The notes below the pieces were generated by a model, which saw nothing but the letters and a program-made list of their open reading frames with translations, was not told the DNA's origin and did not search any database. Below are positions 526 through 16,238 of a stretch of DNA of 42,270 nucleotides, piece after piece. The DNA lies in the sequence record SRR31156797_1918, one strand, 5' to 3'. A program made the position numbers and the translations under genes. Position 1 is the stretch's first letter. Every line of letters begins with the position of its first letter.

Positions 526-946
526 ACCTGATAAGGGCCAAGGTCTCTGCTGTACCATTTGACTGGTACCGAAGTTCAATCCTCTACGATGGTCCTGCTT
601 CCATTAGGCTGTTGAATGGCAGAATTTTGGTCGATATTACTTTCGAATCTGCCATAGAGATATAGGTTAAGATTGCCCAGGGTAAGCACCTTGACGAGTA
701 GCCTGGCTCCAACTTGGGGTGCTTCCTGTTCAGAGCAGACTGTGGAGGACAATTAGAAAACACGTATCTATGAGGGTCAACCCGTGAATGTGCAGGTGCA
801 AGTCTAAATAACAATTTTGTCCGAGCCATTAAGCTGTCCTAATACGTTACAAGCTACCGCAATCAATTATTTTAAACTCTATCCTTCGGTCAATTGCGTC
901 TCTGAAGTCGCTAGTTCCTGTTCCTATAATATTTTCTGTAAAACCT

Positions 947-1189
947 TTACCAGATGTATCTATTTTTAACATTTTTGATAAGAGACTCTTGGTCATTATT
1001 TACAAAGGCAATGCCAAAATTCTCTAAAAACTCCTTCCGAATAGATATAACAGCCACCTTTCTGGATAACAATAAATCCTCAGCAAGGTAAACACACCCA
1101 ATCCCGCCTTCACCGATTTTCTCAACTAGCTGGTATCGATCCTGGGTGATATCTTTTATTGACAACGCTTTGGGCTTACTTTTTGGCAC
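947..1189 (-). pseudogene. N-terminal fragment of a Hanks-type Ser/Thr protein kinase
   Basis: RYQLVEKIGEGGIGCVYLAEDLLLSRKVAVI = subdomains I-II; invariant VAVK Lys reads Ile (ATA); similarity ends after about 55 aa; no HRD/DFG motifs seen. Confidence 0.75.
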
Positions 1190-1399
1190 AAAAATAACGA
1201 ATAATTTAGATAAACTACAAAAAGCGAATTACCTTGGGAAAAAACCCACCCTTCAAAAAAACACAAAGCATCGATATAAAAAGAAAAAACCAAAAATAAT
1301 TCAGGCGAAAACTAGTAATTCACCCCTTCAACTTTGCTAGAGACTCGTTAGTTTCAAAGTTATAAAATAAGGAAGATAGTGTTTTTATATATTTGTTAT

Positions 1400-1429
1400 T
1401 TGATCAAGAGGGTGCGGTGCGTTTATAAT
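1400..1429 (+). promoter_or_regulatory. Candidate sigma70 promoter for the carbamoyltransferase gene
   Basis: TTGATC (1400-1405), 18 nt, TATAAT (1424-1429), 60 nt upstream of ATG 1490. Confidence 0.5.
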
Positions 1430-1489
1430 AACTCTTATGCTTTCCTCGATGTACGGGGATAACCTCAATAATTATTCAAAAAGGTTGTA

Positions 1490-4400
1490 ATGTCGAAATA
1501 CCATTTGGGACTGAACCTGGGGCACGACCGTGCTGCGGCTTTGGTCCGAGACGGAAAGATCGTCGTCGCCATCCACCAAGAGCGTCTGGATCGGCAGAAG
1601 CACAGCATTGGCTTTTTGCATCAAAACTTTCACGATCCTGCTCAAATTCAGCTGCCTCATGAAGCGATCCAGTACTGTCTGAAAAGTTGCGGCATTCAAC
1701 TCGCAGATGTCTCCACCATCAGCGCCAATATGCCCGGTGCTGACCAAAGCTCACAAATTCTTCACCGCAGTTTACCACCGGATTTCAAGGGAAGAATCTT
1801 AGCTCCCCCAAGCCATCACCGTATGCACGCCTATTCTGCCTACTGGCCGTCGGGCTTTGACGAAGCATTGGTCTTTGTCGTTGATGCCTCCGGCAGCAGC
1901 CATGATGGACTGACTGAATCGTACACCTTATACACTGCCTCCGGCGAAACAATTACTACCCTTTATGAGGAACGGGTACCTTCTCATCTGGCTCCCCTGT
2001 CCACTCTAGGTTTCCTCTACGAGTATGTCAGCAGCAAGGCTGGTTTTGTGACCCAAGTAGGTTCATCCATACGTGTTCCCGAGGCCGGTAAGCTGATGGG
2101 CCTTGCTGCCTACGGCAGTCTTCAAGACCAATGGCAAAGTTGGATCCGAACTTGTACCGATAGCTACCGCGTGGATATTTCGGCCTACGACATCTTTCTG
2201 GAGATTGCAGCCCTGGAGAAGCGTTATGACGACGGTCGGGGGAAACCCTACCTGCGACCATATCTCGTTGATTTAGCTTGCAAGGTACAGCACGAGCTTG
2301 AACAGGCCCTGCTGCACATCGTTGGCCGGGCTGTGAAGGAGACCGGATTACGTAAGGTCTGCCTCGCCGGTGGTGTCACCCTTAATTCGGTCGCCAATTA
2401 CAAGCTGTTGCACGAACTTAACCTGGAGGATATTTTCATTTTTCCAGCAGCAGGGGATGCCGGTATCGCTGCCGGTTGTGCTCTCTGGGCCTATGCAGAA
2501 CATGAGAGGGGCACGCTGCGTAAGCCCATGCGACATGCGGCTTTGGGGCACGCCTGGGACGACGAGTCCATCGTAGGTTCACTCGAACACTTCGCAGATC
2601 GCATTCAGGTTGAGCGTCTCACCGATGACCAGGTGGTAGAGCAGACCGCACAGGCACTAGCCAAGGGGCATATTGCCGCACGATTTGAGGGCGGCTCTGA
2701 ATTCGGGCCCCGCGCTCTTGGTTCCCGCTCAATCCTTGCCGACCCTACGTTCAAACACATCAAGGACATTCTCAACGCTCGGGTTAAATTTCGTGAGCCC
2801 TTCCGTCCGTTTGCCCCTGTTATTCCCGAAGAGGATATTACTGAAGTTTTCGAACAGGAGGTTCCATCACCTTTCATGCTGGTGGTGTCACAGATTAAGC
2901 CTGAATACCACGAACAGATACCAGCTGTAACCCATTACGACGGCTCGGGTCGAGTGCAGACTGTGACGGCGAGGGACAATCCTTTTTTTCATCGCCTCTG
3001 CCGAAAGATGGCCATTTTACGCGATGGGCCTCCGGTCATACTTAACACGAGTTTCAATATCGCTGGACAGCCAATTGTGGAAACCCCAGCGGAGGCCATC
3101 GAGACCTTCCTCAGCACCAACATCGACTATCTTTTCCTCGAGAATTATCGCATATCCAAGCGTGATGTTCCTGTGCTCGATTACGAACATCACTTGGCAG
3201 AGGTGGGCGATTGCACCCTGCCATATGGTTTGCCAAGCGGCCAAAAGCCGATTACAGAATTGATGTACCAACTGGATCGAGCTTTGTTCTTCAACGAAAC
3301 GGATAACTGCCCCTGGACGATGGAAGAGCTGCGGCTCCTGTCACAAGAAGGTGCTGTCTTCAAGGAGACAAGCAAAGAATTTCCGAACACCCCCTTTGAC
3401 AACCTCCTGCAAACTCAGCTATCACAATCTGTTGCGCTCTTACTAGATCCTATAAACGGATCACAGCTGGTCGATACAAGCGATAAGGCCAAAGCAGTAC
3501 GTCTTCCCTGGCCTGACGTGGGCTTGCTGAAAGCATTGCTCAATGGAGATCGTCTTCTGCTGGAACGTCTGCGTCTGGATCGCCAGTGCACGACCCTGTC
3601 ATGGGCCATGCAAATCGCTGCCATGACCGAGCGATTGCGTCTTTACCGATTAGAACTGGCAGACGTTGGTGCGAGCCAGGCCTATCTACCAGAAAAAGAC
3701 AGTGCCCTTCCGGAGCGTGTCAAGCTAACCCTCGAACCTTTCGAAGACGAAAACTTTCTACTTTGCTCCACCTTGGCCTTGCTGCGAAAGGTACTTGATG
3801 AGACAGAATACAACGAGACCACCATCTGCACGTTACTCGGAGTGGAATCCCTCCAGGCCATCGAGCCCACTCACTTACATTATTACGACCGTTTCCTGCT
3901 GCCAAATACACCACTCGCAAACCTCGTTCGCCTGTTCCTGCTGAGGGTTGCTCTGTCAGAGACAAAACTCCGCGACCTGTTCGGGGACAAAATGTTCGAG
4001 ACCCTTTCGAGTCTTGACGTGTTCTACCCTTCCAGTGAACTCTGGGCTTCTCGTATCGCTCTCTACAGTGTCGAAGGACTCTACCTGGCTACCGATCATC
4101 GCTATATGCTAGATGAAAAGATCCGATTACCGGAAGCTCCAGTAATGTACATCGGCCAGGATAGTCGAGGCCTAGTGCATGCGGCGCCGCGCAAGCCCTG
4201 CGCCAAACTACTTGATCTCTGTACCGGTTCAGGGATACAAGCTCTCTCTGGCAGCCGCTATGCCACTAACGCAGTTGGGGTGGACTTGAACCCGCGAGCC
4301 GTTCGTTTCGCTCGCTTCAACGCACAACTCAACGGTATTACCAATGTGCGCTTCCTGCAGGATGATCTTTATAATAGCTTCCAGGATGAAACGTTTGATA

Positions 4401-5323
4401 TCATCCTTGCCAATCCGCCCTTTGTACCCAGCCCCTACAGCAACTTGCGCTACCGCGATGGCGGTAACACTGGAGAAGCGATACTCGCGCGGGTCATTAG
4501 CGAAGCTAACCCGTATATGAGTCCCGGCGGTCAGCTGCACATCGTCACCGACCTTGTGAATATCGACGAGTATACGACCAAGCTGCAACACTGGTGGCAA
4601 GGTGAACCTACGCACCAACTGGTGCTTGGCACCGCTGACCGCGATGAAATTCTGTTTTCTGTGCCCCATAGTCACTCCCCTTTCGATCAGAGCGTTGAGG
4701 CTTACAAGACTGAGCTGGATAAATGGGTACACAATTACCGCGAAGCGGGAATCAAGGCCGTAAATTTTGGGTACATCTTCATCAATAAATTGACGAGTAA
4801 GGACGAGAGCACCTACTTCAACCGGGTGATCCATAACCCGTCAAGTCCCATCCATCACGAGGTGGCGAACTATTTTGTACAACGGCGGCTGCTTGCTGAG
4901 TTCAATACGGATAATCCCCCAAAGCTTTCCCTGCAGCTCAAGCCTGGTCTCAGGTTTCGGGTTGAGTTCGATGCAGCCGGCGGAGACCAGCAGGTAGAGC
5001 TATACGTTCCCAACAACCCCTATTTCACGACTTACGTGGTGAACAATGCGGTGTACCAGGAATTACAGTTCATCAATCGCCACCAGCCAAGCCTGGACGT
5101 GTTCCTGAACGAAACCCAGCAAACTCGGATCATAGACCTTGTCCTTAAAGGGGTATTGGAGCTGACGGAGCAAAGGGTGAATGCCTCGACAGAGGAAAGG
5201 GTTACGCTCACAGGCCACAGAGCCAACCCCGTTAACCAGCTCAATGGAGAAAGGGAGCCACTGGACATCAAAGAGCTGGAAACGAAAACTACGCCGACCT
5301 GCTTATCTTCATATTTATCTTAA
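1490..5323 (+). CDS. NodU/CmcH/TobZ-family O-carbamoyltransferase fused to a class I SAM-dependent (HemK/PrmC-like) methyltransferase
   Basis: Kae1-like motifs GHDRAAAL, SHHRMHAYSA, GKLMGLAAYG, AGGVTLN, GDAG; YrdC-like motifs EFGPRALGSRSILADP, KFREPFRPFAP, THYDGSGRVQTV, LNTSFN; then LLDLCTGSGIQAL, VDLNPRAV, ILANPPFVP. Confidence 0.92.
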   Translation: MSKYHLGLNLGHDRAAALVRDGKIVVAIHQERLDRQKHSIGFLHQNFHDPAQIQLPHEAIQYCLKSCGIQLADVSTISANMPGADQSSQILHRSLPPDFKGRILAPPSHHRMHAYSAYWPSGFDEALVFVVDASGSSHDGLTESYTLYTASGETITTLYEERVPSHLAPLSTLGFLYEYVSSKAGFVTQVGSSIRVPEAGKLMGLAAYGSLQDQWQSWIRTCTDSYRVDISAYDIFLEIAALEKRYDDGRGKPYLRPYLVDLACKVQHELEQALLHIVGRAVKETGLRKVCLAGGVTLNSVANYKLLHELNLEDIFIFPAAGDAGIAAGCALWAYAEHERGTLRKPMRHAALGHAWDDESIVGSLEHFADRIQVERLTDDQVVEQTAQALAKGHIAARFEGGSEFGPRALGSRSILADPTFKHIKDILNARVKFREPFRPFAPVIPEEDITEVFEQEVPSPFMLVVSQIKPEYHEQIPAVTHYDGSGRVQTVTARDNPFFHRLCRKMAILRDGPPVILNTSFNIAGQPIVETPAEAIETFLSTNIDYLFLENYRISKRDVPVLDYEHHLAEVGDCTLPYGLPSGQKPITELMYQLDRALFFNETDNCPWTMEELRLLSQEGAVFKETSKEFPNTPFDNLLQTQLSQSVALLLDPINGSQLVDTSDKAKAVRLPWPDVGLLKALLNGDRLLLERLRLDRQCTTLSWAMQIAAMTERLRLYRLELADVGASQAYLPEKDSALPERVKLTLEPFEDENFLLCSTLALLRKVLDETEYNETTICTLLGVESLQAIEPTHLHYYDRFLLPNTPLANLVRLFLLRVALSETKLRDLFGDKMFETLSSLDVFYPSSELWASRIALYSVEGLYLATDHRYMLDEKIRLPEAPVMYIGQDSRGLVHAAPRKPCAKLLDLCTGSGIQALSGSRYATNAVGVDLNPRAVRFARFNAQLNGITNVRFLQDDLYNSFQDETFDIILANPPFVPSPYSNLRYRDGGNTGEAILARVISEANPYMSPGGQLHIVTDLVNIDEYTTKLQHWWQGEPTHQLVLGTADRDEILFSVPHSHSPFDQSVEAYKTELDKWVHNYREAGIKAVNFGYIFINKLTSKDESTYFNRVIHNPSSPIHHEVANYFVQRRLLAEFNTDNPPKLSLQLKPGLRFRVEFDAAGGDQQVELYVPNNPYFTTYVVNNAVYQELQFINRHQPSLDVFLNETQQTRIIDLVLKGVLELTEQRVNASTEERVTLTGHRANPVNQLNGEREPLDIKELETKTTPTCLSSYLS

Positions 5324-5433
5324 TTCCGTCTTTTGGGGGCGACAAAAACAGGATAGATTGGGCTTTCGCTGGTTATGGAGCTATACTCTCGACAAATACA
5401 TCGTCGAGGTTTTAGACAACAACATCTATTGAG

Positions 5434-8022
5434 ATGTACACTATGAATTTACAGAAAACAGCAATAATTCTTATCGGCTATCAAAATGACTACTTTGCCG
5501 AGGATGGAATACTCCGAGCGGTGATTGAGGAACCAGGCCATGCCTCGGCCGTCCTGTCGAACACTATAGCACTGATCAAACGACTCCAGCTTACACCTGT
5601 GCACTTGATCTCAACGCCGATTATTTTCACACCAAAGTACACCGAGCTTGTCGACCCGGTAGGCATCCTTAAGACGATCCGTGATTGTGGAGCATTTAAA
5701 ACAGGGACCAAAGGGGCAAAAACCGTCCCTGAATTTTTAGAGTTCAAAGACCGGATTATGGAACTCCCTGGAAAATCGGGACTCAATGCCTTTTCAAACA
5801 CCCATCTAAACGATGTGCTGCAGGAAAGGGGGGTGACCGATGTCGTCTTGGCCGGAGTAGTTTCATCGATCTGCATCGATTCCACAGGACGATCGGCTTT
5901 TGAGCAAGGGTATAGGGTCCATATCCTCAGCGACTGCACAGCCGGTCGTACCGCAGTCGAGCAATCATTTTTTTGCGAAAAAATATTTCCACTTTACGCT
6001 AAGGTGATCGAGCCCCCGACTCTTTTTGCAGGTACCCAGGAGACATCAAGCTCAACCAATCATGAGCGTCACCTGGATCAATCTGAACTCGATCTCCAGG
6101 CGCGATACTGCCTCATTGAAGATCTCTCGCATTCAAAGCAACGTTATCAAGCCCTGATCGAACGTATGCACGACATTGTTTTCCAGGCTGATGACTCACT
6201 CCGCTTCACATTTCTTAACCCCGCCTGGACTTCTGTAACCGGCTTCTCAATAGCCGAAGCCATGGGCAGTTCTATGGCTGGGTTCGTTGCCGAGCCTAGC
6301 CAGGAAGCCTGGAAGAAATTTACAGGGGAACTGAAAAACGGTGCACAGCAGTATCTTCTTCCGGAACTGTGCCTGTGCCACGCTGACGACGGGTATCGTT
6401 GGGTGACGCTTTTCTTAGAAAAGGGCGATCCGGAAAGCTGGTGGACAGGCTCGATACACGACATCACTGATAGCAAGCGAGCGGAGGATGCACTCCGAGA
6501 AAGTGAGGAACGCTTTCGGACAATCTTCGAAACAGCCCAGGACTCCATCTTTATCAAAGATTGCGCCCTTAAGTACACCCACGTCAACCCGGCCATGGAG
6601 ACCAATTTTGGATTTTCGTCCTCTAAGCTGATCGGCCTGACAGATGATAATCTCTTCAATGAAAAAACAGGAGCACATCTCAGAGATATAGATTCTCGTG
6701 TTCTTAAGGGGGAAATCATTGAGGAGGAGCTCACTATATCATTGAATAAGGTCCTGCACAGGTTTGACATCATAAAGGTGCCGATGAAGGATAGCTCTGG
6801 TGAAATCAGTGGACTGTGTGGTATCGCTCGTAACATTTCCGAGCGGAAGAAGGCGGAAGAAGAGCTGCACAAAATGCAGAAACTAAAAAGTATTGGTACG
6901 CTGGCTGGCGGTATCGCGCATGATTTTAATAATATTCTGACCGGGCTGTTTTTCAATATCTCATTGGTAAAAAGCGAACTTTCCCAAGACCACCCTGGTT
7001 TCAGCGACCTTGAAAGCGCTGAAAAATCCATGAAAAGGGCATCTCGGCTTACCAGCCAGTTGTTGACTTTCGCAAAGGGTGGAGAACCCGTCATGGAAGA
7101 TGTCAGCCTTGGTAAACTTGTTGAAGAAGTAGTACGCTTTGACCTTTCAGGCAGCAACGTAATGCCCATTTTTAAGCAGGATGACGACCTTTGGATAGCC
7201 AAAGTGGATAACGGCCAGATACAGCAGGTCATCTCAAACCTTACCACAAATGCCAACCAGGCAATGCCCGCTGGCGGCCGCCTGTATATTGCATTGGAGA
7301 ATGCAAATATCCAAGAGAATGCGATATCAGGCCTAGATAAACGGAAATATATCAAGCTCACAGTGCGGGATGAAGGAACAGGTATCGAGCAGAAGAATCT
7401 TGACCGGATTTTCGACCCATATTTCAGCACCAAGCATACAGGCAGCGGCTTGGGCCTGGCTACAGTCTACTCAATCATAACTAAACACGGTGGCCATATA
7501 AGCGTTGATTCGGAATTAAATAAAGGAGCAACCTTTACGCTCTACCTACCCGTTTCAGCATCAAAGCATCCACCGGAAACTGAGCCTCTAGCCCTTGGGC
7601 TTTCGACAATAAAGCGAACTGCCAGAATTCTTGTAATGGATGATGACAAAATGATCAGAGTGGCAGCCTCGAAGATGCTCAAACTAATGGGACATTCGGT
7701 TGAAACAGCCATTGAAGGCAGACAGGCGATTGAAATGTATAAACAGTCATTTGATATCGGTGCGCCTTTTGATGCTGTCATTATGGACCTTACAATCCCA
7801 GGCGGTGTTGGTGGGAAGGAAGCGATCAGAAGCATCCTCGATATTGATCCGGAAGCCAGGGTCATTGTTTCCAGTGGATACGCCAATGATCCAGTCATGG
7901 CCAACTATACTGAATACGGCTTCAAAGATATCGTTGCAAAGCCATACAGCATGAGTCATTTTTGGGACGTGTTGAATCGAGTTTTGAAAACAAATGGGTA
8001 TTCAGACAATCGCCAGCAATAA
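5434..8022 (+). CDS. Hybrid sensor kinase: isochorismatase-like domain, PAS, PAS, HisKA, HATPase, REC (start may be ATG 5443)
   Basis: N-term IILIGYQNDYF, GKSGLNAF, LAGVVSSICIDSTGRSAFEQGY, LSDCTA; PAC ends HDITDSK and RNISERK; H-box AGGIAHDFNNIL; DEGTGI, FDPYFSTK, GSGLGL; receiver VMDDD, IMDLTIPG, KPY. No TM helix seen. Confidence 0.92.
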   Translation: MYTMNLQKTAIILIGYQNDYFAEDGILRAVIEEPGHASAVLSNTIALIKRLQLTPVHLISTPIIFTPKYTELVDPVGILKTIRDCGAFKTGTKGAKTVPEFLEFKDRIMELPGKSGLNAFSNTHLNDVLQERGVTDVVLAGVVSSICIDSTGRSAFEQGYRVHILSDCTAGRTAVEQSFFCEKIFPLYAKVIEPPTLFAGTQETSSSTNHERHLDQSELDLQARYCLIEDLSHSKQRYQALIERMHDIVFQADDSLRFTFLNPAWTSVTGFSIAEAMGSSMAGFVAEPSQEAWKKFTGELKNGAQQYLLPELCLCHADDGYRWVTLFLEKGDPESWWTGSIHDITDSKRAEDALRESEERFRTIFETAQDSIFIKDCALKYTHVNPAMETNFGFSSSKLIGLTDDNLFNEKTGAHLRDIDSRVLKGEIIEEELTISLNKVLHRFDIIKVPMKDSSGEISGLCGIARNISERKKAEEELHKMQKLKSIGTLAGGIAHDFNNILTGLFFNISLVKSELSQDHPGFSDLESAEKSMKRASRLTSQLLTFAKGGEPVMEDVSLGKLVEEVVRFDLSGSNVMPIFKQDDDLWIAKVDNGQIQQVISNLTTNANQAMPAGGRLYIALENANIQENAISGLDKRKYIKLTVRDEGTGIEQKNLDRIFDPYFSTKHTGSGLGLATVYSIITKHGGHISVDSELNKGATFTLYLPVSASKHPPETEPLALGLSTIKRTARILVMDDDKMIRVAASKMLKLMGHSVETAIEGRQAIEMYKQSFDIGAPFDAVIMDLTIPGGVGGKEAIRSILDIDPEARVIVSSGYANDPVMANYTEYGFKDIVAKPYSMSHFWDVLNRVLKTNGYSDNRQQ

Positions 8023-8370
8023 GATAACACGGCTTTTTAAAGCTGACGTTTCTGCAAGCCAACTGTTCAACTGATCTTGCCTCAATAGAGTAGGCAATCG
8101 GTTAAGTGACTTTTCTCAGTCCCCGCCATTCTTGTCAATGCCAATACACAGCAAGAGGCATTGCCCCCATTCGCTGCATGCTTCCTCCATAGGTTAGAGT
8201 ACACTTCTATAAAATTGGAAAGAGCATGCAGCTTCCTCTACCTTCACAGCTCACATAATGGGTACGCTGATGAAAATAACAAATAGCTTGAAATTGTTTT
8301 TTATTTTTATTTATGTATACGAATAAATACAGAGAGAGCAAGAACGCTTCAAAATCAGGAGTATACGTCG

Positions 8371-9033
8371 ATGGCACCAACCAGAGCGAGTACCCCCTTG
8401 TGGCTGATTCTGTTTATCACGCTGTTCGTCTGTCTGGCAGCATTCTTTTTATACCAGACGTTTGCTGCCCCTCCTGCCCCCAAGTCCGCACAAACACTCA
8501 AACCTGAGTGGTATACCCTTTCCACTGCCCGTGGTGAGATACGAAAAAATAACACCATTGTCGGCAACTGTTTTATCTGCCATGCCTTTTGGGTGCCGAT
8601 CCCCACCAGCAATCTAAACTCCGCACCCCGTTTTGCCCACTCTCATATCACACTTAACCACGGTACCAATGACCGCTGTTACAACTGCCATCACCTAACC
8701 GATCGCAACAAGTATACGGCAGATGATGGTTCCGGCATTATGCCGCAAATCTCAGAACAACTCTGTAAACGATGCCATGGGCTCATTTACAAAGATTGGG
8801 CCATGGGTACCCACGGGAAGTGGACAGGGAAGTGGGACTCTGCGCAATTCACAGACCAGGAGACATTCACCTGTGTTGAGTGCCATGATCCCCATGATCC
8901 TCAATTTAAGTACGCCATCATTGCTCCACCTCCTGTTTGGCAGGATAAATTCATTCGAAGTGAGAGCGAAGGAAGCCATTCAGGGCCACACTCAAGTTTT
9001 CTTATCGGTGAAGAACCAAAGGAGATCTTCTGA
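8371..9033 (+). CDS. Membrane-anchored tetraheme c-type cytochrome
   Basis: N-terminal hydrophobic helix; CFICH, CYNCH, CKRCH, CVECH; stop overlaps next start (TGATG). Confidence 0.88.
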   Translation: MAPTRASTPLWLILFITLFVCLAAFFLYQTFAAPPAPKSAQTLKPEWYTLSTARGEIRKNNTIVGNCFICHAFWVPIPTSNLNSAPRFAHSHITLNHGTNDRCYNCHHLTDRNKYTADDGSGIMPQISEQLCKRCHGLIYKDWAMGTHGKWTGKWDSAQFTDQETFTCVECHDPHDPQFKYAIIAPPPVWQDKFIRSESEGSHSGPHSSFLIGEEPKEIF

Positions 9034-9971
9034 TGGTTGAGAGTAAAGAGAAAAAAGGACAAGAAACCGGCACTGACAGGCGTAGTTTTATAAAAACAGG
9101 GACCGTTGCCGTTGCAGGACTTGCTGCCACAGGCGGGGCGCTCAGCCCGCTTTTTTATGCTGAAGAAGTACCAACTGTTGATGAACTGTTACAGAAACAT
9201 TACAAGAAACTTTCCACGGAAGACAAAAAGGATATATTTGAACGTCTGGAGTCCCAGCTTGAAAGGGAGCACGGAATCAAAGCCTCCATCTCCGATCCCC
9301 AACCCATGGACGGCGTAGAGTATGCCTATATCCTCAATGTCGGTCGTTGTATTGGCTGTAGAAAATGTGTCTATGCCTGTATGAAAGAGAACAACACCTC
9401 ACGAGCCCCTCAGCTCCAGTATATCAGGGTCATGAAGCTTAAACGCGGCTCCATTGACCTTGAAAACTCATCCCACGATTACCCAGAAGAAGAGGCCGCA
9501 TCGCCTGATTATTACTACATGCCCGCACAGTGCCATCAATGCCGTAACCCGCCCTGCATCAAAGTCTGCCCGGTCAAGGCCACCTGGATGGAAAAGGACG
9601 GTATAATCGTTGTTGATTACAACTGGTGCATCGGCTGTCGTTACTGTGAAGCAGCCTGTCCCTATCATGCTCGTCGTTTCAACTTTGCCAAGCCGGTTAT
9701 CCCCCGGGAAGAGATCAACCCCAATATGGGATATCTCTCTAACAGGATACGTCCGCTCGGGGTTATGGAGAAGTGTACTTTTTGTTTGCACCGGACACGT
9801 GTTGGGCTCTACCCTGCATGTCACGATGTTTGTCCCACCGGGGCAAGAAAATTTGGTGATCTTCGAGACCCAGAGTCCGAGGTACGCAAGATATTAGAAA
9901 AAGAAAGGGTTTATGTCCTGAAACAGGAAATAGGAACCATCCCCCGCTTCTATTATGTATTTGCAAAATAA
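9033..9971 (+). CDS. Tat-exported 4x[4Fe-4S] protein, NrfC/DsrO-like
   Basis: DRRSFIK twin-arginine motif; CIGCRKCVYAC, CHQCRNPPCIKVCP, CIGCRYCEAACP, CTFC...PACHDVCP. Confidence 0.9.
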   Translation: MVESKEKKGQETGTDRRSFIKTGTVAVAGLAATGGALSPLFYAEEVPTVDELLQKHYKKLSTEDKKDIFERLESQLEREHGIKASISDPQPMDGVEYAYILNVGRCIGCRKCVYACMKENNTSRAPQLQYIRVMKLKRGSIDLENSSHDYPEEEAASPDYYYMPAQCHQCRNPPCIKVCPVKATWMEKDGIIVVDYNWCIGCRYCEAACPYHARRFNFAKPVIPREEINPNMGYLSNRIRPLGVMEKCTFCLHRTRVGLYPACHDVCPTGARKFGDLRDPESEVRKILEKERVYVLKQEIGTIPRFYYVFAK

Positions 9972-10003
9972 AAGGGTACAAGGCCAACACTAACCACAGG
10001 GAA

Positions 10004-11194
10004 TTGCCCATGTTCAGATTCTTTGCAGACGGGTTCAAGGCCGCTTTTGTTGGAAGCGGTTGGTACTGGCTATGGATTTTACTACTCATTACCCTGTCCC
10101 TGATCGGGCTCAACGCCTATGCCAAGCAGCTCGCCTTTGGCCTGGTTACCTCAGGGATGGGAGATGAGGTCTCCTGGGGCCTCTACATAGCAAACTTTGC
10201 CTTTCTTGTAGGCATGGCAGCTGCTGCGGTGATGATGGTGATCCCCGCTTACATCTTTGATGATCGAGAGATGCACAAGGTGGTGATTTTCAGTGAACTT
10301 TTTGCCATTGCCGCCATGATCATGTGCATGCTCTTTATTGTCGTCGATCTGGGAAGACCGGATCGACTCTGGCACCTCATCCCTGGAATCGGTTTTTTCA
10401 ACTTTCCCGGGTCGCTGCTCACGTGGGATGTCATCGTCTTAAACGGCTACCTGCTCTTAAACCTCTGGGTCTGTTTTTATGTCCTCTATAAAGGCTATCA
10501 GGGAAAAACGCCCAAGCCCTATCTCTATATTCCAGTGGTCTTTCTGGCTATCGCCTGGGCACCATCAATCCATACCATCACTGCTTTTCTCTTCCAAGGG
10601 CTTGGAGGTCGACCTTTCTGGAACTCTGGGCTCATTGCCCCGCGTTTCCTGGTGTCTGCCTTTGCCGCTGGCCCCGCCTTTATGGTCCTGGTCTTTAAAT
10701 TTCTTAAAACCACCGGCGCCATCCACTTTAACGAAAAGGTTATCGATCGAATCAGGGTGATTATAACGGTCAGCCTGCTCATTAATCTTTTCCTGGCCGG
10801 CTCTGAACTCTTTGCTGAATTCTATTCCCAATCCGCCCATACCATTCATATCAGTCACCTTTTTGGGCTCCACGGCACATCTCTCCTAGCGCCCTGGATA
10901 TGGGGTGCTCTTGCTCTGAATGCTCTAGCAGCCCTAATCCTCCTCTCTCCCCTTCGCAGAAACTCTTTTTTTCTCATCTTATCCTGTATCATGATCGTCC
11001 TGGGCATCTGGACGGAAAAAGGCCTGGGGTTTGTTGTGCCCGGCTTTATTCCCACTCCGCTCGGGGATTTTGTCCAGTATGTCCCATCAACCAATGAACT
11101 GCTCATTTGCGCTGGTATCTGGGCCTTTGGCCTGCTTATCTATTCTGTGCTTCTCAAGGCTGCTATAACGATTGTTGATCGTACGCAGTACTGA
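10004..11194 (+). CDS. NrfD/PsrC-family integral membrane subunit (DsrP-like)
   Basis: SWGLYIANFAFLVGMAAAAV, VDLGRPDR; about 10 hydrophobic segments; follows an NrfC-like gene. Confidence 0.9.
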   Translation: MPMFRFFADGFKAAFVGSGWYWLWILLLITLSLIGLNAYAKQLAFGLVTSGMGDEVSWGLYIANFAFLVGMAAAAVMMVIPAYIFDDREMHKVVIFSELFAIAAMIMCMLFIVVDLGRPDRLWHLIPGIGFFNFPGSLLTWDVIVLNGYLLLNLWVCFYVLYKGYQGKTPKPYLYIPVVFLAIAWAPSIHTITAFLFQGLGGRPFWNSGLIAPRFLVSAFAAGPAFMVLVFKFLKTTGAIHFNEKVIDRIRVIITVSLLINLFLAGSELFAEFYSQSAHTIHISHLFGLHGTSLLAPWIWGALALNALAALILLSPLRRNSFFLILSCIMIVLGIWTEKGLGFVVPGFIPTPLGDFVQYVPSTNELLICAGIWAFGLLIYSVLLKAAITIVDRTQY

Positions 11195-11311
11195 GCCCAT
11201 AACGCAGGCTACTGAGGTAACTGTTATTCAAGCTCTTTTAAGGAGGTGCTCTTACCAAAAAGTTAAACAGGTAACATCACTCATCTCTCACCCTAAAAAA
11301 AGGAGTTAGTT

Positions 11312-13684
11312 ATGTTCAAGGTATGGAGAGGACTACTGCCAACTGCCATTGGCTTATGCCTGGTGGGTGCGGCATCAGCATATGGAGCCGGTGGCTGCTC
11401 GACTCAGGAATGTCACCAGGGCATCGCTGATATCAAACCAGCCGATCATGAAATGATGCGTACTATTAAAATGAACGGTTCCCAGCATGGAGACCCGGAT
11501 GGCTGCGTCATGTGTCACGGTGGAAATCCCAAAGCCACCAAAAAAGAAGAAGCGCATAAAGGCGTACCGCCAACACTGCGCATCGCGCCTGGTCCAAAAG
11601 ATTACTACCCAGATCCCGGATCCATATGGGTTGCCGAGAACTCCTGCGGCGCCTGTCATCCAGGCTATGTTTATCGCTCCAAACTTGGTCTGATGAATAC
11701 CGAAGCCGGTAAAATACAAGGTAACCTGGTCACCTGGGGCTTTGAAGAAGTCCAGGACTATAATGTTCCCTGGGGCAACTACAATGCCCAAGATATAGAC
11801 AGCCTTGACCCCTTGTCCGGCACTCCTGCCTACAAGGAGTATATGAAGAACCAGATAGCCCTCTATCCCAAGCAGTATCCAGAAAATCTCAAACAGATGC
11901 CCAACGTGACCATGGATGAGGTCAATGTTGATCCCAAGATGGCCGGGATCACCTACCAGCGACATGATTGTCAGCGTTGTCATATAGGCGTCAGAGGCCG
12001 TGAGAAGCGTGGTGATTTCAGAGGAATGGGCTGCTCGGCATGTCATGTTCTCTATGGGACTGACGGCTACTACATGGGCGAAGACAAAACTATCTCCAAG
12101 GACAAAGCTGGACACATGCTCAAGCACGAGATAGTGGCCACCAGAAAAACCGGTGGCATTCCGGTGGAAGCCTGTTCTTCTTGCCATAACCGCGGTAAGC
12201 GAATCGGCGTTTCCTTCCAAGGCTTGATGGAATTCCCCTATGGCTCGCCCTACAATGAAAAAGGAAATAAACAGCCTAAGCTGCACACCAAACGCTATCT
12301 CTTTGTCTCTGACGATCTCCACCACCAGCAGGCAAGCCGTAAAGGCAACCCTCAGGGTGGTATGCTCTGTCAAGACTGCCATACCTCCATTGATATGCAC
12401 GGTGATGGAAATATCCATGGGACGACTCTTGCCCAGGTGGAAATCGAATGTTCCGATTGTCATGGATTGACTGATAAATATCCTTGGGAACTCCCGGTGG
12501 GGTATGGGGATGAGTTTGGTAAGGATCTGAGCAAAGATCCTCGCGGTGTGGCTCAAGAGCGCTTAATCCCAGGGAGACAGTTCGGCTATCCTTACGAGGT
12601 CGAGGATGGCTTTATCCTTACTTCACGTGGAAACCCTTTTGGTAATGTTATCAAGCGTGGCAACAAGGTTATTGTCCATTCAGCCACTGGCAACGACTTT
12701 GAAGTACCTGTACTTAAAGTGCTGCGGGAAGAGAAAAGGTGGAAAGACCCATCTGCAGAAGTGGCCATGTATGCGGTTGCCAAGCATATGACCAACCTGG
12801 AATGCTATTCCTGTCATGCCTCTTGGGCACCGCAGTGTTACGGCTGTCATGTACAGGTCAACTACAAGCCCAAGGACGGTAAACCGGTCACCGGAACCGA
12901 CTGGGTGGCCTCTGGGAATGCCCAGAAACCCAATGGTCAAACCGCAGAATCAATCCTCGGCTCTGGTGGCATCAAGTCTCCCGGTAAAATATCTGAGACC
13001 AGGTCATACCTGCGTTGGGAAGATCCAGTCCTCGGTATCAGTGGCGAAGGGCGTGTGTCTCCACTCATGCCTGGTTGCCAGGTCACTTACACCATTATTA
13101 ATGACAAGGGTGAAACCCTGCTGAACAATGAAATTGCTCTCAGCCCCACAGAGGCTCAACAGCTTGGTCAGGAACATGTACCGCTTGCCATCGATATGGC
13201 TCCATTGCAACCCCACACGGCCCAGCGTCAAGCCAGGACCTGTGAGTCATGCCATACCAACCCCAAAGTAGCAGGACTTGGTTTGGGTAATGGTACGTTT
13301 GGACTCCGTCAGGCTGAAAACGTGGTAATGGATCTTATGGACGCCACCACCAGGGAGATTATCCCAGCCAAGTACAGCGTGCAGATCCCTGCCATCCCGA
13401 AACTGAATTTTGACTGGTCTCAGGTCGTCACCCGTGAGGGTGTCCAATTGGCCACGGTGGGTACACACTGGCCCATGTCCCGGGCATTCAACAAGCAGGA
13501 GATAGACAACTTCCTCAGGGCTGGCACCTGTATGGGCTGTCACCAGAACATGAGTGAAGCGGAACTGTGGAAAAAGGTTTCTACCGAAGGCACCATCGAT
13601 CCAAAAGGTCACTTGGAAGCGATGAACAAAATGATCAAGTTCATGGCAGAGCAGAATATGAAACCTGCTGAACTCCAAGAGTAA
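11312..13684 (+). CDS. Large exported multiheme c-type cytochrome (11 CxxCH plus one CX4CH)
   Basis: Signal peptide; CSTQECH, CVMCH, CGACH, CQRCH, CSACH, CSSCH, CQDCH, CSDCH, CYSCH, CYGCH, CESCH, CMGCH; RBS AAGGAG. Confidence 0.92.
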   Translation: MFKVWRGLLPTAIGLCLVGAASAYGAGGCSTQECHQGIADIKPADHEMMRTIKMNGSQHGDPDGCVMCHGGNPKATKKEEAHKGVPPTLRIAPGPKDYYPDPGSIWVAENSCGACHPGYVYRSKLGLMNTEAGKIQGNLVTWGFEEVQDYNVPWGNYNAQDIDSLDPLSGTPAYKEYMKNQIALYPKQYPENLKQMPNVTMDEVNVDPKMAGITYQRHDCQRCHIGVRGREKRGDFRGMGCSACHVLYGTDGYYMGEDKTISKDKAGHMLKHEIVATRKTGGIPVEACSSCHNRGKRIGVSFQGLMEFPYGSPYNEKGNKQPKLHTKRYLFVSDDLHHQQASRKGNPQGGMLCQDCHTSIDMHGDGNIHGTTLAQVEIECSDCHGLTDKYPWELPVGYGDEFGKDLSKDPRGVAQERLIPGRQFGYPYEVEDGFILTSRGNPFGNVIKRGNKVIVHSATGNDFEVPVLKVLREEKRWKDPSAEVAMYAVAKHMTNLECYSCHASWAPQCYGCHVQVNYKPKDGKPVTGTDWVASGNAQKPNGQTAESILGSGGIKSPGKISETRSYLRWEDPVLGISGEGRVSPLMPGCQVTYTIINDKGETLLNNEIALSPTEAQQLGQEHVPLAIDMAPLQPHTAQRQARTCESCHTNPKVAGLGLGNGTFGLRQAENVVMDLMDATTREIIPAKYSVQIPAIPKLNFDWSQVVTREGVQLATVGTHWPMSRAFNKQEIDNFLRAGTCMGCHQNMSEAELWKKVSTEGTIDPKGHLEAMNKMIKFMAEQNMKPAELQE

Positions 13685-14807: not shown

Positions 14808-16238
14808 ATGAGGGTGTCAACTATGAAGAATTGGAAAATTGGTGTATTTCTTCTTGCAGCTTATGTAGTCCTGGGTGGGTTGACCACTCAGGGACTTGCT
14901 GCGGAATTACCTACGGCTTCAGTCTCTGATGAAGAAAATATTCAGCACCAACTTGTGAATGAAGGCTTCGCTGATGTCATCGTTTCAGTAAATCCGCAAG
15001 CTATTGGTAAGTCGATGCAGCTTGATGCGATGAGTAAGAGTGAACGTAATTCTGTGGTTTCTCGGATGCAATCTGGGCTTTTAAGTAGATTATCCAGCAC
15101 CGATCATAAGATATTACAGAAGTTTTCCTATAATCCGCAAATGCATTTACATATCAACGCTAAGGCGTTTGAGATTTTGCAACAAAATTCTGAAATCGCC
15201 ATTAGCCCCAATCTACGACACACTTTCAATTTGTCGACAAGTGTTCCCCGAGTATTCAGGGGCCACAGGACTTCCCCTTATGATGGGGATAATCGTTGGG
15301 CGGTTGCAGTGCTCGATACCGGGGTCCAAAAATCTCACGCTTTTCTTCGGAATAAAGTGATTTCAGAGGCTTGTTATTCAGGTGGCTATTCGCACTCTGC
15401 TGTGAACTCTCTATGTCCTGGTGGGGTTCGCTCTTCTACAAAAAATGGATCTGGGGTGAATTGCTCGGGGATTGATGGTTGTAGTCATGGAACTCATGTT
15501 GCAGGTATTGTCGCTGGGTATAATTCGAGTATGGAGGGGGTGGCAGACAAGGGGAAGGTGATTTCGATCCAGGTCTATTCCAAAATTAGTGGAACTAATA
15601 ACTGCTATCCGTACCCATCACCTTGCCTTGCTGCTTTTAGTTCAGACATTATTAGTGCTTTGGAAAGAGTATATGCGCTACGAAATACATACAACATAGC
15701 AGCAGTTAATATGAGTCTCGGAGGGGGGTCATATTCGGGATATTGTAACTCTGAGTCTCGCCGCCCTATTATTCGTACGCTTAAGTCTGCAGGGATTGCA
15801 ACCATAGTATCTTCTGGTAACGATTATCGTAACTATCAGATTTCAGCTCCAGCGTGTATTCAGGAGGCCATTGCGGTGGGAGCTTCTTATGATAACAGTG
15901 ACACAAGAGCTAGGTTCAGCAATAACAGTCCCGCCTTAGATTTATATGCACCTGGGGCGTGGATTACCTCATCAGTAGTGGGAGGGGGTTATGCTGCATA
16001 TCAGGGCACTTCTATGGCTACGCCGCATGTGGCTGGCGCTTGGGCAGTATTGCGTCATGCTAAACCAAGTGCCTCAGTAGATGAGATAGAAAGTCTCTTG
16101 AAGAGCCTTGGCCCTGGCATTACCGTTTTGGGAGTGACAAGGAAGCGGATAGATATAACAGCTGCATTAACCAGACTTGCAATTAATCCAGCAGCTTCAT
16201 TACCTGCTATTATTTATTTATTATTGTTGAACGACTAG
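14808..16238 (+). CDS. Secreted S8 (subtilisin-like) serine peptidase with prodomain
   Basis: Signal peptide; triad motifs VLDTGV, SHGTHVAGI, GTSMATPHVAG; SSGN oxyanion motif. Confidence 0.93.
   Translation: MRVSTMKNWKIGVFLLAAYVVLGGLTTQGLAAELPTASVSDEENIQHQLVNEGFADVIVSVNPQAIGKSMQLDAMSKSERNSVVSRMQSGLLSRLSSTDHKILQKFSYNPQMHLHINAKAFEILQQNSEIAISPNLRHTFNLSTSVPRVFRGHRTSPYDGDNRWAVAVLDTGVQKSHAFLRNKVISEACYSGGYSHSAVNSLCPGGVRSSTKNGSGVNCSGIDGCSHGTHVAGIVAGYNSSMEGVADKGKVISIQVYSKISGTNNCYPYPSPCLAAFSSDIISALERVYALRNTYNIAAVNMSLGGGSYSGYCNSESRRPIIRTLKSAGIATIVSSGNDYRNYQISAPACIQEAIAVGASYDNSDTRARFSNNSPALDLYAPGAWITSSVVGGGYAAYQGTSMATPHVAGAWAVLRHAKPSASVDEIESLLKSLGPGITVLGVTRKRIDITAALTRLAINPAASLPAIIYLLLLND

Follow-up and report, generated by a model that had tools for sequence, protein, structure and literature searches.

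The window analysed here, a stretch of 42,270 nucleotides from sequence record SRR31156797_1918, encodes a fusion protein in which a carbamoyltransferase and a methyltransferase are followed by a short peptide-like tail, raising the question of what such an enzyme does with a tail of its own. A preliminary description had divided positions 4925-5323 into a unit resembling a RiPP recognition element (RRE), a linker, a leader and a core, and had proposed a one-gene, self-modifying RiPP. These positions are correct, as they correspond to aa 1146-1277 plus the stop codon of the ORF at 1490-5323 and contain the quoted peptides. The overall RiPP-like reading is partly supported: the tail is conserved behind a variable linker and the preceding unit is predicted to have an RRE-type fold, but two weak tests gave no homologue with a separately encoded peptide, proteases and exporters are not conserved around the gene, and the statement about the adjacent genes is wrong. 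Together, the features collected in Table 1 suggest that the fusion enzyme probably modifies its own tail.

Table 1. Features of the fusion gene and of the adjoining ORF in the window.
Feature	Residues	Positions	Strand	Basis
Whole ORF: carbamoyltransferase, middle region, DUF7059/N-methyltransferase, RRE-like winged helix, linker, invariant tail	1277 aa	1490..5323	+	
Carbamoyltransferase N-terminal (Kae1-like) domain	aa 108-332	1811..2485	+	Pfam PF02543, E 2.5e-35
Carbamoyltransferase C-terminal (YrdC-like) domain	aa 387-557	2648..3160	+	Pfam PF16861, E 4.1e-62
Second strands-then-helices unit, middle region	aa 648-717	3431..3640	+	DSSP on predicted model (model residues 89-158)
DUF7059-like helical domain before methyltransferase	aa 773-844	3806..4021	+	PF23186, E 0.0018, 18.8 bits (weak; Pfam cut-off 27)
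Class I SAM N-methyltransferase core, NPPF at N975-F978	aa 892-1021	4163..4552	+	Pfam MTS, 6.1e-17
RRE-like winged-helix domain	aa 1145-1229	4922..5176	+	Predicted fold
Hypervariable, disordered linker	aa 1230-1259	5177..5266	+	Conservation and two predicted models
Leader-like half of tail (I-K-E-L-E-T-K-T-T-P)	aa 1260-1269	5267..5296	+	Modelled as ordered strand
Core-like half of tail (T-C-L-S-S-Y-L-S)	aa 1270-1277	5297..5320	+	Invariant; modelled as free
Isochorismatase-family cysteine hydrolase fused to PAS-PAS-HisKA-HATPase-REC	aa 9-192 (hydrolase)	5434..8022	+	Pfam

Both halves of the carbamoyltransferase lie in one chain and score above their Pfam cut-offs, placing the protein in the NodU/CmcH/TobZ family. 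Given that the NCBIfam NodU equivalog falls far below its own cut-off (133 versus 1000 bits), the fusion protein is a member of this family and not NodU itself. Pfam also returned a weak HypF_C_2 match within the carbamoyltransferase. Among 58 diverse sequences, H109, H110, H113, D132 and D323 of the N-terminal domain and K433, R435, S521 and N523 of the C-terminal domain are invariant, and these residues may correspond to the TobZ/YrdC metal-binding set and the K-x-R and S-x-N nucleotide motifs. As read from its sequence, the NodU/TobZ-type carbamoyltransferase of the fusion protein appears intact.

The DUF7059-like domain ahead of the methyltransferase matched at E 4.4e-4 when searched as an excised piece. 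Sequence searches related the methyltransferase to AerE (7rc2, E 2.5e-11, the best solved match), GenN and HemK, and Foldseek with the methyltransferase model recovered GenN (4.5e-19), AerE (2.2e-17) and PrmC (2.4e-9), with AerE as the second-best fold match (TM 0.74 on the target, about 18-19% identity in the structural alignment). SAM motif I and the NPPF motif (975-978) are invariant among the 58 sequences. In AerE, Tyr137, Asp141, Asn231 and Phe234 are each required for amide N-methylation, as described in PMC9060474; they align with Y887 and D891, just upstream of the methyltransferase core, and with N975 and F978, and all four are invariant in the same 58 sequences. The fusion protein therefore contains, by these conserved residues, an intact N-methyltransferase of the AerE/HemK type. 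GenN is an amine methyltransferase and matches as well as AerE, which counts against an amide-methylation reading. A literature search for carbamoyl N-methyltransferases gave no biochemical paper, and only the title of PDB entry 9l4q names one.

The fusion protein is widely distributed. A protein search (E<=1e-3) recovered 234 homologues of the same build, and a pattern-based genome scan gave 98 matches, five of which encoded no relative. The gene was recorded in 93 species genomes from Cyanobacteria, several proteobacterial classes, Verrucomicrobiota, Planctomycetota, Acidobacteriota, Bdellovibrionota and Nitrospirales. Literature searches returned no paper on this family, on the themes of carbamoyltransferase-methyltransferases or peptide carbamoyltransferases, or on the names DUF7059 and DUF7782, and an Atlas search with the middle region gave no usable match. 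At 10 loci the tail-bearing ORF is shorter than usual (for example L053, with 775+70+551 aa, L031 and L074). We considered true gene splits at these loci and rejected them, as several consist of adjacent or overlapping same-strand pieces that we read as frameshifts. P0162 was likewise rejected as a tailless paralogue: it lies on a 2.6-kb contig, its nearest relatives are family members and it is probably cut or divergent.

We assessed conservation of the C-terminal region in 116 full-length sequences (the query and 115 homologues). The linker varies freely, with a mean commonest-residue share of 0.27 over aa 1221-1240 and 0.29 over aa 1241-1260, gaps of 20-39%, lengths of 26-70 residues (median 44.5) and pLDDT values of 41-62 in both models. 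The tail behind it (aa 1261-1277) has a mean share of 0.84, as high as in the catalytic cores. E1262, T1265, T1268, P1269, C1271, S1273 and Y1275 are identical in all 116 sequences, T1267 and T1270 in 115, K1266 in 110 and I1260 in 109; 5-9 residues follow Cys1271, and 0-4 variable residues follow the final Leu. The conserved tail is without Asn or Gln, Gln occurring only at the variable position 1264 (51 of 116). An exact TTPTC stands near the protein end in 118 of 120 listed homologues, the remaining two differing by one residue, and in 43 of 57 further representatives. Ten of the other 14 break off ahead of the tail, being fragments or frameshifted at the end, and the last four comprise one extension after the motif, one Cys-to-Ser variant (P0153, a 163-aa fragment) and two methyltransferases of ~500 aa. 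Across 67 sequences (66 loci and the window) the invariant tail positions use all four Thr, all four Pro and six Leu codons, and this free synonymous change indicates selection on the peptide rather than on DNA or RNA. A conserved terminal peptide behind a variable linker is the outcome that the preliminary description had named as support for its reading. An invariant core is unusual for RiPPs, a feature that counts against the explanation we favour below.

The leader-like half had been likened to the daptide motif ELExMEAP, which is in print (10.1101/2023.03.08.531785). The spacing of E1262, L1263 (kept in 102 of 116) and P1269 agrees with this motif, but the third position is Glu in only 38 of 116. 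The fusion tail also differs from daptides in not ending in Thr, and no daptide enzyme types occur among the conserved neighbours. Homologues carrying the peptide as a separate small ORF, which would have strengthened the RiPP comparison, did not appear in two weak tests. A DNA pattern for TKTTPTC occurred once per genome, within the fusion gene, in four of five genomes, the fifth carrying TETTPTC, and a protein search for shorter forms with aa 1236-1277 gathered only five candidates and gave two fragments, both with the winged helix still in place.

Closer inspection of an AF2 model of aa 1040-1277 (pLDDT 87) suggests how the tail may be held. DSSP places strands at aa 1146-1150, 1155-1159, 1168-1172 and 1182-1184, helices at aa 1186-1198 and 1208-1219 and a further strand at aa 1223-1227, so that the strands-then-helices pattern first noticed in the letters of this ~80-aa unit is present in the model. 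The predicted arrangement, a three-stranded sheet followed by helices, resembles solved RREs, in line with the winged-helix fold that had been anticipated. In comparisons of the C-terminal model with structures, RRE rows came from VIA-align only, and we presume that the matches MibB, TbtB, MadB, ThcOx, MccB and the DUF2063 protein 3dee all carry RRE-type domains. The last of these is termed an RRE in PMC12710340. Foldseek of the C-terminal model against the PDB gave no match at E<=0.001, and Pfam gave no family at E<=10 for aa 1036-1277 or 1146-1277, hence no PqqD (PF05402) match. As modelled, aa 1145-1229 nonetheless has the fold of a RiPP recognition element. Within the tail, aa 1260-1269 are ordered in two separate models (pLDDT 77 and 78, DSSP strand at aa 1260-1262), and aa 1270-1277 are undocked in both (pLDDT 44-46), a point against the explanation favoured below.

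Related methyltransferases share part of this build. The DUF7059-MTS-DUF7782 proteins (~500 aa, for example from Actinomycetota) contain a homologous module with the same domain order and a winged-helix end, but they are without carbamoyltransferase, linker and tail and are 25-30% identical to the fusion protein. An hhalign comparison of aa 1136-1232 with the DUF7782 ends of 17 such paralogues was not significant (probability 0.7). Atlas leads point to DUF7782 (0.89) and include MftB, and the paralogue P0208 has a PqqD match (E 2.8e-4) that narrowly misses the cut-off. PMC12710340 notes in bulk that RREs occur in fusion with PF02543 carbamoyltransferases, and the present family may be among them, although that passage is a data-set-level remark that mentions no tail, methyltransferase or partner.

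The preliminary description saw nothing relevant adjacent to the gene, and here it was wrong. The next ORF joins a cysteine hydrolase to PAS and histidine kinase domains, and in 25 of 80 loci this hydrolase and the orthologous PAS sensor, a single ORF in the window, are direct neighbours of the fusion gene, with several orientations and three fusions among them; counted singly, PAS orthologues occur in 29 of the 80. The hydrolase domain (5434-6009) matches PF00857 at E 3.8e-31 and stays below every NCBIfam cut-off; of the characterised proteins, biuret/triuret hydrolases and RutB are its closest relatives. At least 26 of 27 orthologues keep each of K114 and C147, with Gly15 at a third site that is presumably where the catalytic Asp of the PF00857 Asp-Lys-Cys triad would be expected. 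Four of five cyanobacteria without a local copy hold a hydrolase orthologue elsewhere in the genome, and among 151 cyanobacterial genomes sampled both genes occur in the same two, one of which was the chosen centre, and neither occurs in the other 149. Other observations weigh against the explanation favoured below. Fifty-five of the 80 loci are without the hydrolase. Clade A (16 sequences) is never found with it, and none of five clade A genomes holds an orthologue; one gammaproteobacterial genome has the hydrolase-PAS cassette and no detectable fusion gene. Apart from signalling and hydrolase genes, no neighbour cluster occurs in more than 6 of the 80 loci: a recurrent protease is missing within 10 kb, exporter and immunity genes do not recur either, genes of small-molecule pathways are not conserved in the vicinity, and the window's S8 peptidase (14808-16238), upstream ORF, YbaK-like gene and cytochrome gene have no counterparts in the 80 loci. 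An encapsulin or microcompartment targeting peptide was also considered and rejected, as no such neighbour cluster exists in these loci. The conserved adjacency of the hydrolase-PAS sensor thus points to signalling rather than to an antibiotic.

In the explanation that we favour, with evenly balanced confidence, the enzyme would act on its own tethered tail: the RRE-like domain would grip this substrate, a carbamoyl group would be added, and the amide so created would be N-methylated. The leader-like half (I1260-x-E-L-x-T-K-T-T-P1269) would lie as an added strand on the RRE-like domain, so that the core-like half (T-C-L-S-S-Y-L) and the residues around it could move unhindered to the active sites of the same chain or of a partner subunit. 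The carbamoyltransferase would convert carbamoyl phosphate and ATP to carbamoyl-AMP and transfer the carbamoyl group to a tail nucleophile, whether Lys1266, a Thr, Ser or Tyr hydroxyl or Cys1271, after which the methyltransferase would methylate the nitrogen of the new -C(O)NH2. The proteusin Asn side-chain N-methyltransferase type AerE/PoyE (PDB 7RC2-7RC6), the best solved sequence match, differs in that AerE is a stand-alone enzyme of 384 aa acting on a separate precursor with D-Asn. Because the residues for AerE-type amide methylation are invariant here while the tail offers no conserved Asn or Gln, we infer that the amide would be supplied by the carbamoyl group. In the Proteobacteria/Cyanobacteria clade, the modified tail, or a product from it, would probably be read or removed by the linked cysteine hydrolase, which would in turn be tied to a PAS sensor that acts through a kinase or c-di-GMP. 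That the enzyme writes an N-methyl-carbamoyl mark on its own tail and that a hydrolase wired to PAS sensors reads or erases it, making a reversible signalling mark, is in this full form unlikely.

A different role for the tail, as a pseudo-substrate, gate or structural latch in the peptide-binding cleft or active site of an enzyme that in reality acts on a different protein or on a small molecule, is fairly unlikely but has several points in its favour. Invariance across phyla would be expected of contact with the enzyme's own conserved surfaces, and the tailless ~500-aa paralogues end right after the winged helix, so that their target must be encoded elsewhere. Small molecules are the substrates of most characterised NodU/TobZ relatives, of which NovN and GdmN are among the structural matches, and the closest characterised relatives of the linked hydrolase split small ureido compounds. 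A latch, however, fails to explain the fixation of seven nucleophilic residues (four Thr, Cys, Ser and Tyr; 115-116 of 116 sequences) and of Lys1266 (110), it finds no conserved small-molecule pathway nearby, and the last eight residues occupy no modelled pocket. Were the modified tail instead cut after P1269, the gene would release a small carbamoylated and methylated peptide (TCLSSYL-x) or a derived cofactor. The predicted RRE-like fold and leader-like strand would suit such a one-gene RiPP, as would the E-L-x5-P spacing, shared with the daptide leader motif after which daptides are cleaved, and the single motif copy in four of five genomes. Conserved cores are also a feature of cofactor-type RiPP precursors, PqqA and MftA for example, and MftB is among the Atlas leads. 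This reading is quite unlikely all the same: one 1277-aa enzyme would be sacrificed per product of 7-8 residues, variable residues trail the final Leu, no protease, exporter or immunity gene recurs and the S8 peptidase of the window is without counterparts. With neither a protease nor an exporter conserved in the neighbourhood, and with a core that does not vary among phyla, a released, diversifying RiPP product is not the most likely end point.

The identity of Cys1271 in all 116 sequences and the long flexible tether would also fit a carrier arm, in which this Cys is S-carbamoylated, the thiocarbamate is N-methylated and the unit is passed to an acceptor or released as a small signal. In the HypF-HypE system, carbamoyl is transferred to the C-terminal cysteine of HypE, and by analogy a Kae1/YrdC-type carbamoyltransferase is there paired, as may be the case here, with a conserved Cys on a flexible C-terminal tail; the weak HypF_C_2 match and the handling of carbamoyl-type amides by the superfamily of the linked hydrolase agree with this. 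Yet the Cys of the fusion tail is not the last residue, the tail sits on the transferase itself and no HypE-type dehydratase or other HypE-like partner was seen. Ser replaces Cys in P0153 (the 163-aa fragment), and six other hydroxyl residues, needless for a pure thiol carrier, are equally fixed, leaving the carrier arm very unlikely. Conserved C-terminal peptides behind disordered linkers are also the usual form of cargo-loading and docking peptides, and the tail could accordingly bind another machine, such as a compartment shell, a protease or, in one clade, the linked PAS/hydrolase sensor, untouched by its own domains. We consider this highly improbable, as genes for a shell, a protease or another partner are not found repeatedly next to the fusion gene, the tail is equally invariant in clade A, where the hydrolase-PAS partner is missing, and the models place aa 1260-1269 on the fusion protein itself.

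Known systems resemble the tethered-substrate explanation in part. Borosin enzymes methylate backbone amides using another methyltransferase fold. The borosin analogy drawn earlier stands for the architecture, since OphMA-type self-methylating precursors also unite enzyme and candidate peptide in one polypeptide with the peptide C-terminal behind a linker, but it does not extend to the methyltransferase, which is of the class I HemK/AerE type rather than a borosin alpha-N-methyltransferase; the fusion protein further differs in its added carbamoyltransferase and RRE-like domain and in a tail that is invariant rather than variable. The NodU-like enzyme StdF is described in PMC13174530 as carbamoylating the Lys epsilon-amine of a Streptomyces RiPP precursor, this Lys belonging to a conserved motif close to the C-terminal end of the ribosomal peptide. 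By that description, StdF differs in being fused to an S8/S53 peptidase and in having a precursor that is encoded separately, in the company of YcaO, TfuA and MNIO genes; neither these genes nor the peptidase are linked to the fusion gene in the 80 loci, and the likeness to StdF is one by description. Crocagin, as reported in PMC10070186, is a ribosomal peptide with both of the marks proposed for the fusion tail, being carbamoylated by CgnI and N-methylated by CgnL. According to that account, the two enzymes and the precursor are distinct proteins, the pathway has its own hydrolase (CgnD) and it is the free N-terminus that is methylated; none of this was seen at the fusion gene.

If the tail is the substrate, the fusion protein would be the first enzyme known in which a single chain unites a carbamoyltransferase, an amide N-methyltransferase and a peptide-recognition domain with the peptide that they serve. 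This would extend the fused-precursor idea beyond borosins, and protein marks would come to include enzymatic carbamoylation with subsequent N-methylation of the carbamoyl group. With 93 species genomes that have it, the gene is no rarity. The hydrolase-PAS sensor link would, in that case, connect RiPP-type machinery with intracellular signalling. Should the signalling-mark reading also be true, the tail would report the supply of carbamoyl phosphate, ATP and SAM, through a writer, substrate and eraser logic like that of chemotaxis methylation, with new chemistry.

The feature at 4925-5323 corresponds to aa 1146-1277 plus the stop codon of one gene, laid out in the table below. The preliminary description had suggested that this gene may carry its own RiPP substrate, combining an RRE-like domain, a linker and a C-terminal tail with leader-like (aa 1260-1269) and core-like (aa 1270-1277) halves. 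Its observation was confirmed, the coordinates being correct and the quoted peptides present. In NCBIfam, the first part of the protein was closest to NodU and the second to PrmC/HemK, both far under the equivalog cut-offs, and aa 1036-1277 matched no Pfam family even at E<=10.

Features of the fusion gene (aa numbering) and of its surroundings (nucleotide positions in the window)
Feature	Position	Strand	Remarks
Fusion gene	1490-5323	+	single long ORF, 1277 aa; studied feature is its 3' end
Carbamoyltransferase N-terminal domain	aa 108-332		Pfam E 2.5e-35
Carbamoyltransferase C-terminal domain	aa 387-557		Pfam E 4.1e-62
DUF7059	aa 773-844		weak Pfam match, under cut-off
Small-domain SAM methyltransferase	aa 892-1021		Pfam E 6.1e-17
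AT-rich stretch	526-1489		nearly 1 kb upstream of fusion gene; no ORF with a family match
ORF	947-1189	-	no Pfam match
Sigma-70-like site	1400-1429		
Isochorismatase-PAS ORF	5434-8022		next ORF
Electron-transfer operon	8371-13684		multihaem cytochrome, DsrO-like Fe-S protein, DsrP-like membrane protein (385 bits, over its cut-off), large ExtM-like cytochrome

A homologue search scored on aa 1030-1277 considered 1077 candidates, 234 of which passed E<=1e-3; the best 120 of the 234 mostly shared the same build at 1250-1390 aa, with some shorter pieces. We aligned 116 sequences longer than 1200 aa, query included, and found that the mean share of the commonest residue was 0.84 over aa 1261-1277, equal to the catalytic cores, whereas it was 0.27 over aa 1221-1240 and 0.29 over aa 1241-1260, where gaps were many; the proposed pattern of a conserved terminal peptide behind a variable linker thus held. 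Seven tail residues (E1262, T1265, T1268, P1269, C1271, S1273 and Y1275) were identical in 116/116 sequences, followed by T1267 and T1270 (115 each), K1266 (110), I1260 (109), L1276 (104) and L1263 (102), with a spacer of 26-70 residues between the last helix and the tail motif and 5-9 further residues after the tail Cys. All four Thr codons, all four Pro codons and six Leu codons were in use at the invariant positions (67 sequences: 66 loci plus the window), indicating that the constraint acts on the peptide.

Exact TTPTC lay near the C-terminus in 118 of the 120 best-listed homologues, the remaining two having one substitution each. Scanning 1.84 billion cluster representatives with aa 1050-1277 yielded only 58 proteins at E<=1e-3, 57 of them new, and 43 of the 57 carried TTPTC near the end. 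The other 14 comprised 10 fragments or frameshifted ends stopping short of the tail, one frameshift-like extension past the motif, one Cys-to-Ser change (P0153) and two ~500-aa methyltransferases (P0162, P0176). Full-length P0145, P0147 and P0150 retained the tail at only 32-40% identity over the scanned region. The rare variants, TTPTS in P0153 (a 163-aa fragment), TTPPC in P0110 and TKSTPTC in P0031, would, if real, reveal tail positions that tolerate change.

When one genome per species was scanned for the pattern TTPTCLS[SA]Y (185,579 species), we obtained 98 matches. A protein related to the C-terminal region was encoded at 93 of these, and 80 loci were kept. By record title the hosts are Cyanobacteria, Desulfogranum, Alpha-, Beta- and Gammaproteobacteria, Verrucomicrobiota, Planctomycetota, Acidobacteriota, Bdellovibrionota-type bacteria and one Nitrospirales MAG. 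Tail-bearing ORFs were mostly 1250-1364 aa; shorter ones lay at contig ends or, in several cases, among adjacent or overlapping same-strand pieces, which we read as frameshifts. At four loci the gene lies in two or three such pieces (L053 at 6515-10681, from Thiocystis violacea DSM 208, with 775 + 70 + 551 aa; L031; L074; L024), which we take as frameshifts or decaying genes and not as true divisions; as L053 comes from an isolate genome, its broken gene may be a genuine pseudogene.

The AlphaFold2 model of aa 1040-1277, built from a 65-sequence alignment, had a mean pLDDT of 87 and a pTM of 0.81, with pLDDT >90 over aa 1040-1229. Strands were predicted at 1146-1150, 1155-1159, 1168-1172, 1182-1184 and 1223-1227, the last following helices at 1186-1198 and 1208-1219; the winged-helix fold expected of this ~80-aa unit is borne out in predicted structure. 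Further structural look-alikes from VIA-align were, in order, the NovN carbamoyltransferase C-terminal domain (7.2), the PbtF RRE with peptide (7.1), TbiB1 with leader (7.0) and lasso B1 with leader (6.9). By language-model similarity, DUF7782 (0.89), the PKMT winged helix (0.84) and the mycofactocin chaperone MftB (0.84) agree with an RRE-like fold, but count only as leads because all scored below 0.9. Within the tail, aa 1260-1269 had a mean pLDDT of 77 and a DSSP strand at 1260-1262, against 55-62 for the linker and 44 for the last eight residues. The larger model, covering aa 560-1277 (58 sequences, pLDDT 87.6, pTM 0.88), gave the same strand, with pLDDT 78 over aa 1260-1269 and <50 over aa 1230-1257 and 1272-1277. 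This pattern suggests that the leader-like half rests against the protein and that the core-like half stays free, as expected for a leader on an RRE. The homologous DUF7059-MTS-DUF7782 methyltransferases (~500 aa, 25-30% identical) differ in being tailless, ending straight after the winged-helix domain. P0208, a member of this tailless group, reaches E 2.8e-4 against PqqD, narrowly missing the cut-off; profile comparison of the winged-helix regions alone between the two families was not significant.

Among solved sequences, those closest to the methyltransferase are without exception N-methyltransferases: AerE (7rc2, 2.5e-11), GenN (3.6e-11) and HemK (1.2e-10). Foldseek with the aa 560-1277 model placed GenN (4.5e-19) and AerE (2.2e-17) first, far above PKMT1 and PrmC. 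PMC9060474 describes AerE as a proteusin Asn side-chain amide N-methyltransferase (7RC2) whose amide N-methylation requires Tyr137, Asp141, Asn231 and Phe234. These align to Y887, D891, N975 and F978, all invariant in 58 diverse sequences, as are the likely carbamoyltransferase metal ligands and nucleotide motifs, SAM motif I and NPPF. Asn and Gln are missing from the conserved tail. Carbamoylation of Lys1266, a hydroxyl or Cys1271 would supply a -C(O)NH2 of the kind an AerE-type enzyme methylates, and we infer that the two activities may be coupled through this new carbamoyl amide. Three papers offer precedents: a NodU-like enzyme places a carbamoyl group on a Lys within a conserved motif at the C-terminal end of a RiPP precursor (PMC13174530), crocagin is carbamoylated and N-methylated (PMC10070186), and the RRE-Finder authors remark on RREs fused to PF02543 carbamoyltransferases (PMC12710340). 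PDB entry 9l4q, titled 'carbamoyl N-methyltransferase', ranked 43 in the Foldseek list, and no paper was found for it; nor was one found on the fusion family under the names and phrases searched.

The preliminary description, which saw no separate precursor, protease or small-molecule pathway adjacent, missed the next ORF, an isochorismatase-family domain fused to PAS-PAS-HisKA-HATPase-REC (Pfam). Clustering ORFs across the 80 loci showed just one neighbour cluster shared by more than 6 of them, the one containing this protein, whose examples pair a ~200-aa isochorismatase-family protein with a PAS sensor of kinase, hybrid kinase or GGDEF-EAL output. HMMs built from the examples placed the hydrolase in 25/80 loci (E 1e-83 to 1e-109) and the PAS orthologue in 29/80. 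The hydrolase always has the sensor adjoining or fused (fused in L001, L072 and the window), and the two are found no more than about 4 kb from the fusion gene, to either side of it and on one strand or the other. When 61 full-length proteins were placed on a midpoint-rooted tree, linked loci were scattered across a Proteobacteria/Cyanobacteria clade, and the other clade (16 sequences; Planctomycetota, Verrucomicrobiota, Acidobacteriota and others) had none. Where cyanobacterial genomes lack the hydrolase at the locus, 4/5 encode an orthologue elsewhere (63-71% identical); five other genomes, three of the other clade plus L002 and L030 of the Proteobacteria/Cyanobacteria clade, yielded none. 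In an even sample of 151 cyanobacterial genomes, hydrolase and fusion gene occurred in the same 2, one being the chosen centre, and neither in the other 149; among 201 Gammaproteobacteria, 2 genomes had the hydrolase but only 1 had the fusion gene, which counts against co-occurrence. The odd gammaproteobacterial locus L081 (G318:C16, 4666-10905) lines up a sigma-54 response regulator, a hydrolase orthologue of 57% identity and a pair of PAS hybrid kinases, with no detectable fusion gene in the genome; the cassette can stand alone.

The hydrolase falls under every curated cut-off, its nearest relatives being the uncharacterised 3kl2 protein, then biuret and triuret hydrolases, RutB and nicotinamidases. 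Hydrolysis of terminal carbamoyl-type amides by these relatives would fit a role in removing or recognising a carbamoyl mark. K114 and C147 hardly vary, being kept in at least 26/27 orthologues. Gly at aa 15 (window 5476-5478) occupies what we take to be the catalytic Asp position of the isochorismatase motif, where 3kl2 has Glu; the domain could be a slow or trapping hydrolase, a sensor instead of an enzyme.

Elsewhere in the family the signalling neighbours differ. Six Synechococcales loci (L030, L032, L038, L041, L042, L043) carry instead of the isochorismatase-PAS pair a ~250-275-aa metallo-beta-lactamase-fold protein (Pfam Lactamase_B_3 checked for L030) and a hybrid histidine kinase, directly downstream of the fusion gene at about 0-90 bases; the former may be an alternative hydrolase that fills this role. 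In a proteobacterial group, a receiver-domain protein and a PAS hybrid kinase lie 60 bases upstream on the same strand (L002 at 4274-6820, and L004), with no isochorismatase gene at either locus and none found elsewhere in the L002 genome; L003 has only a partial upstream gene at a contig edge. The window's electron-transfer operon has no connection with the tail finding, nor is it conserved across the 80 loci.

We consider it most likely, at about an even chance, that the tail is a tethered substrate shown by the RRE-like domain to the carbamoyltransferase and amide N-methyltransferase of the same protein. A pseudo-substrate latch is possible and clearly less probable. The tail might, with lower probability again, give rise to a released peptide or cofactor; no protease or transporter recurred beside the fusion gene in the 80 loci, where the window's S8 peptidase showed no conservation. 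We regard a HypE-like carrier arm as unlikely, and a docking peptide as more doubtful still. Because the tail is invariant, no protease or exporter recurs nearby in the 80 loci and there is a hydrolase-PAS partner, we think a diversifying natural product a less likely outcome than a signalling mark or some fixed product.
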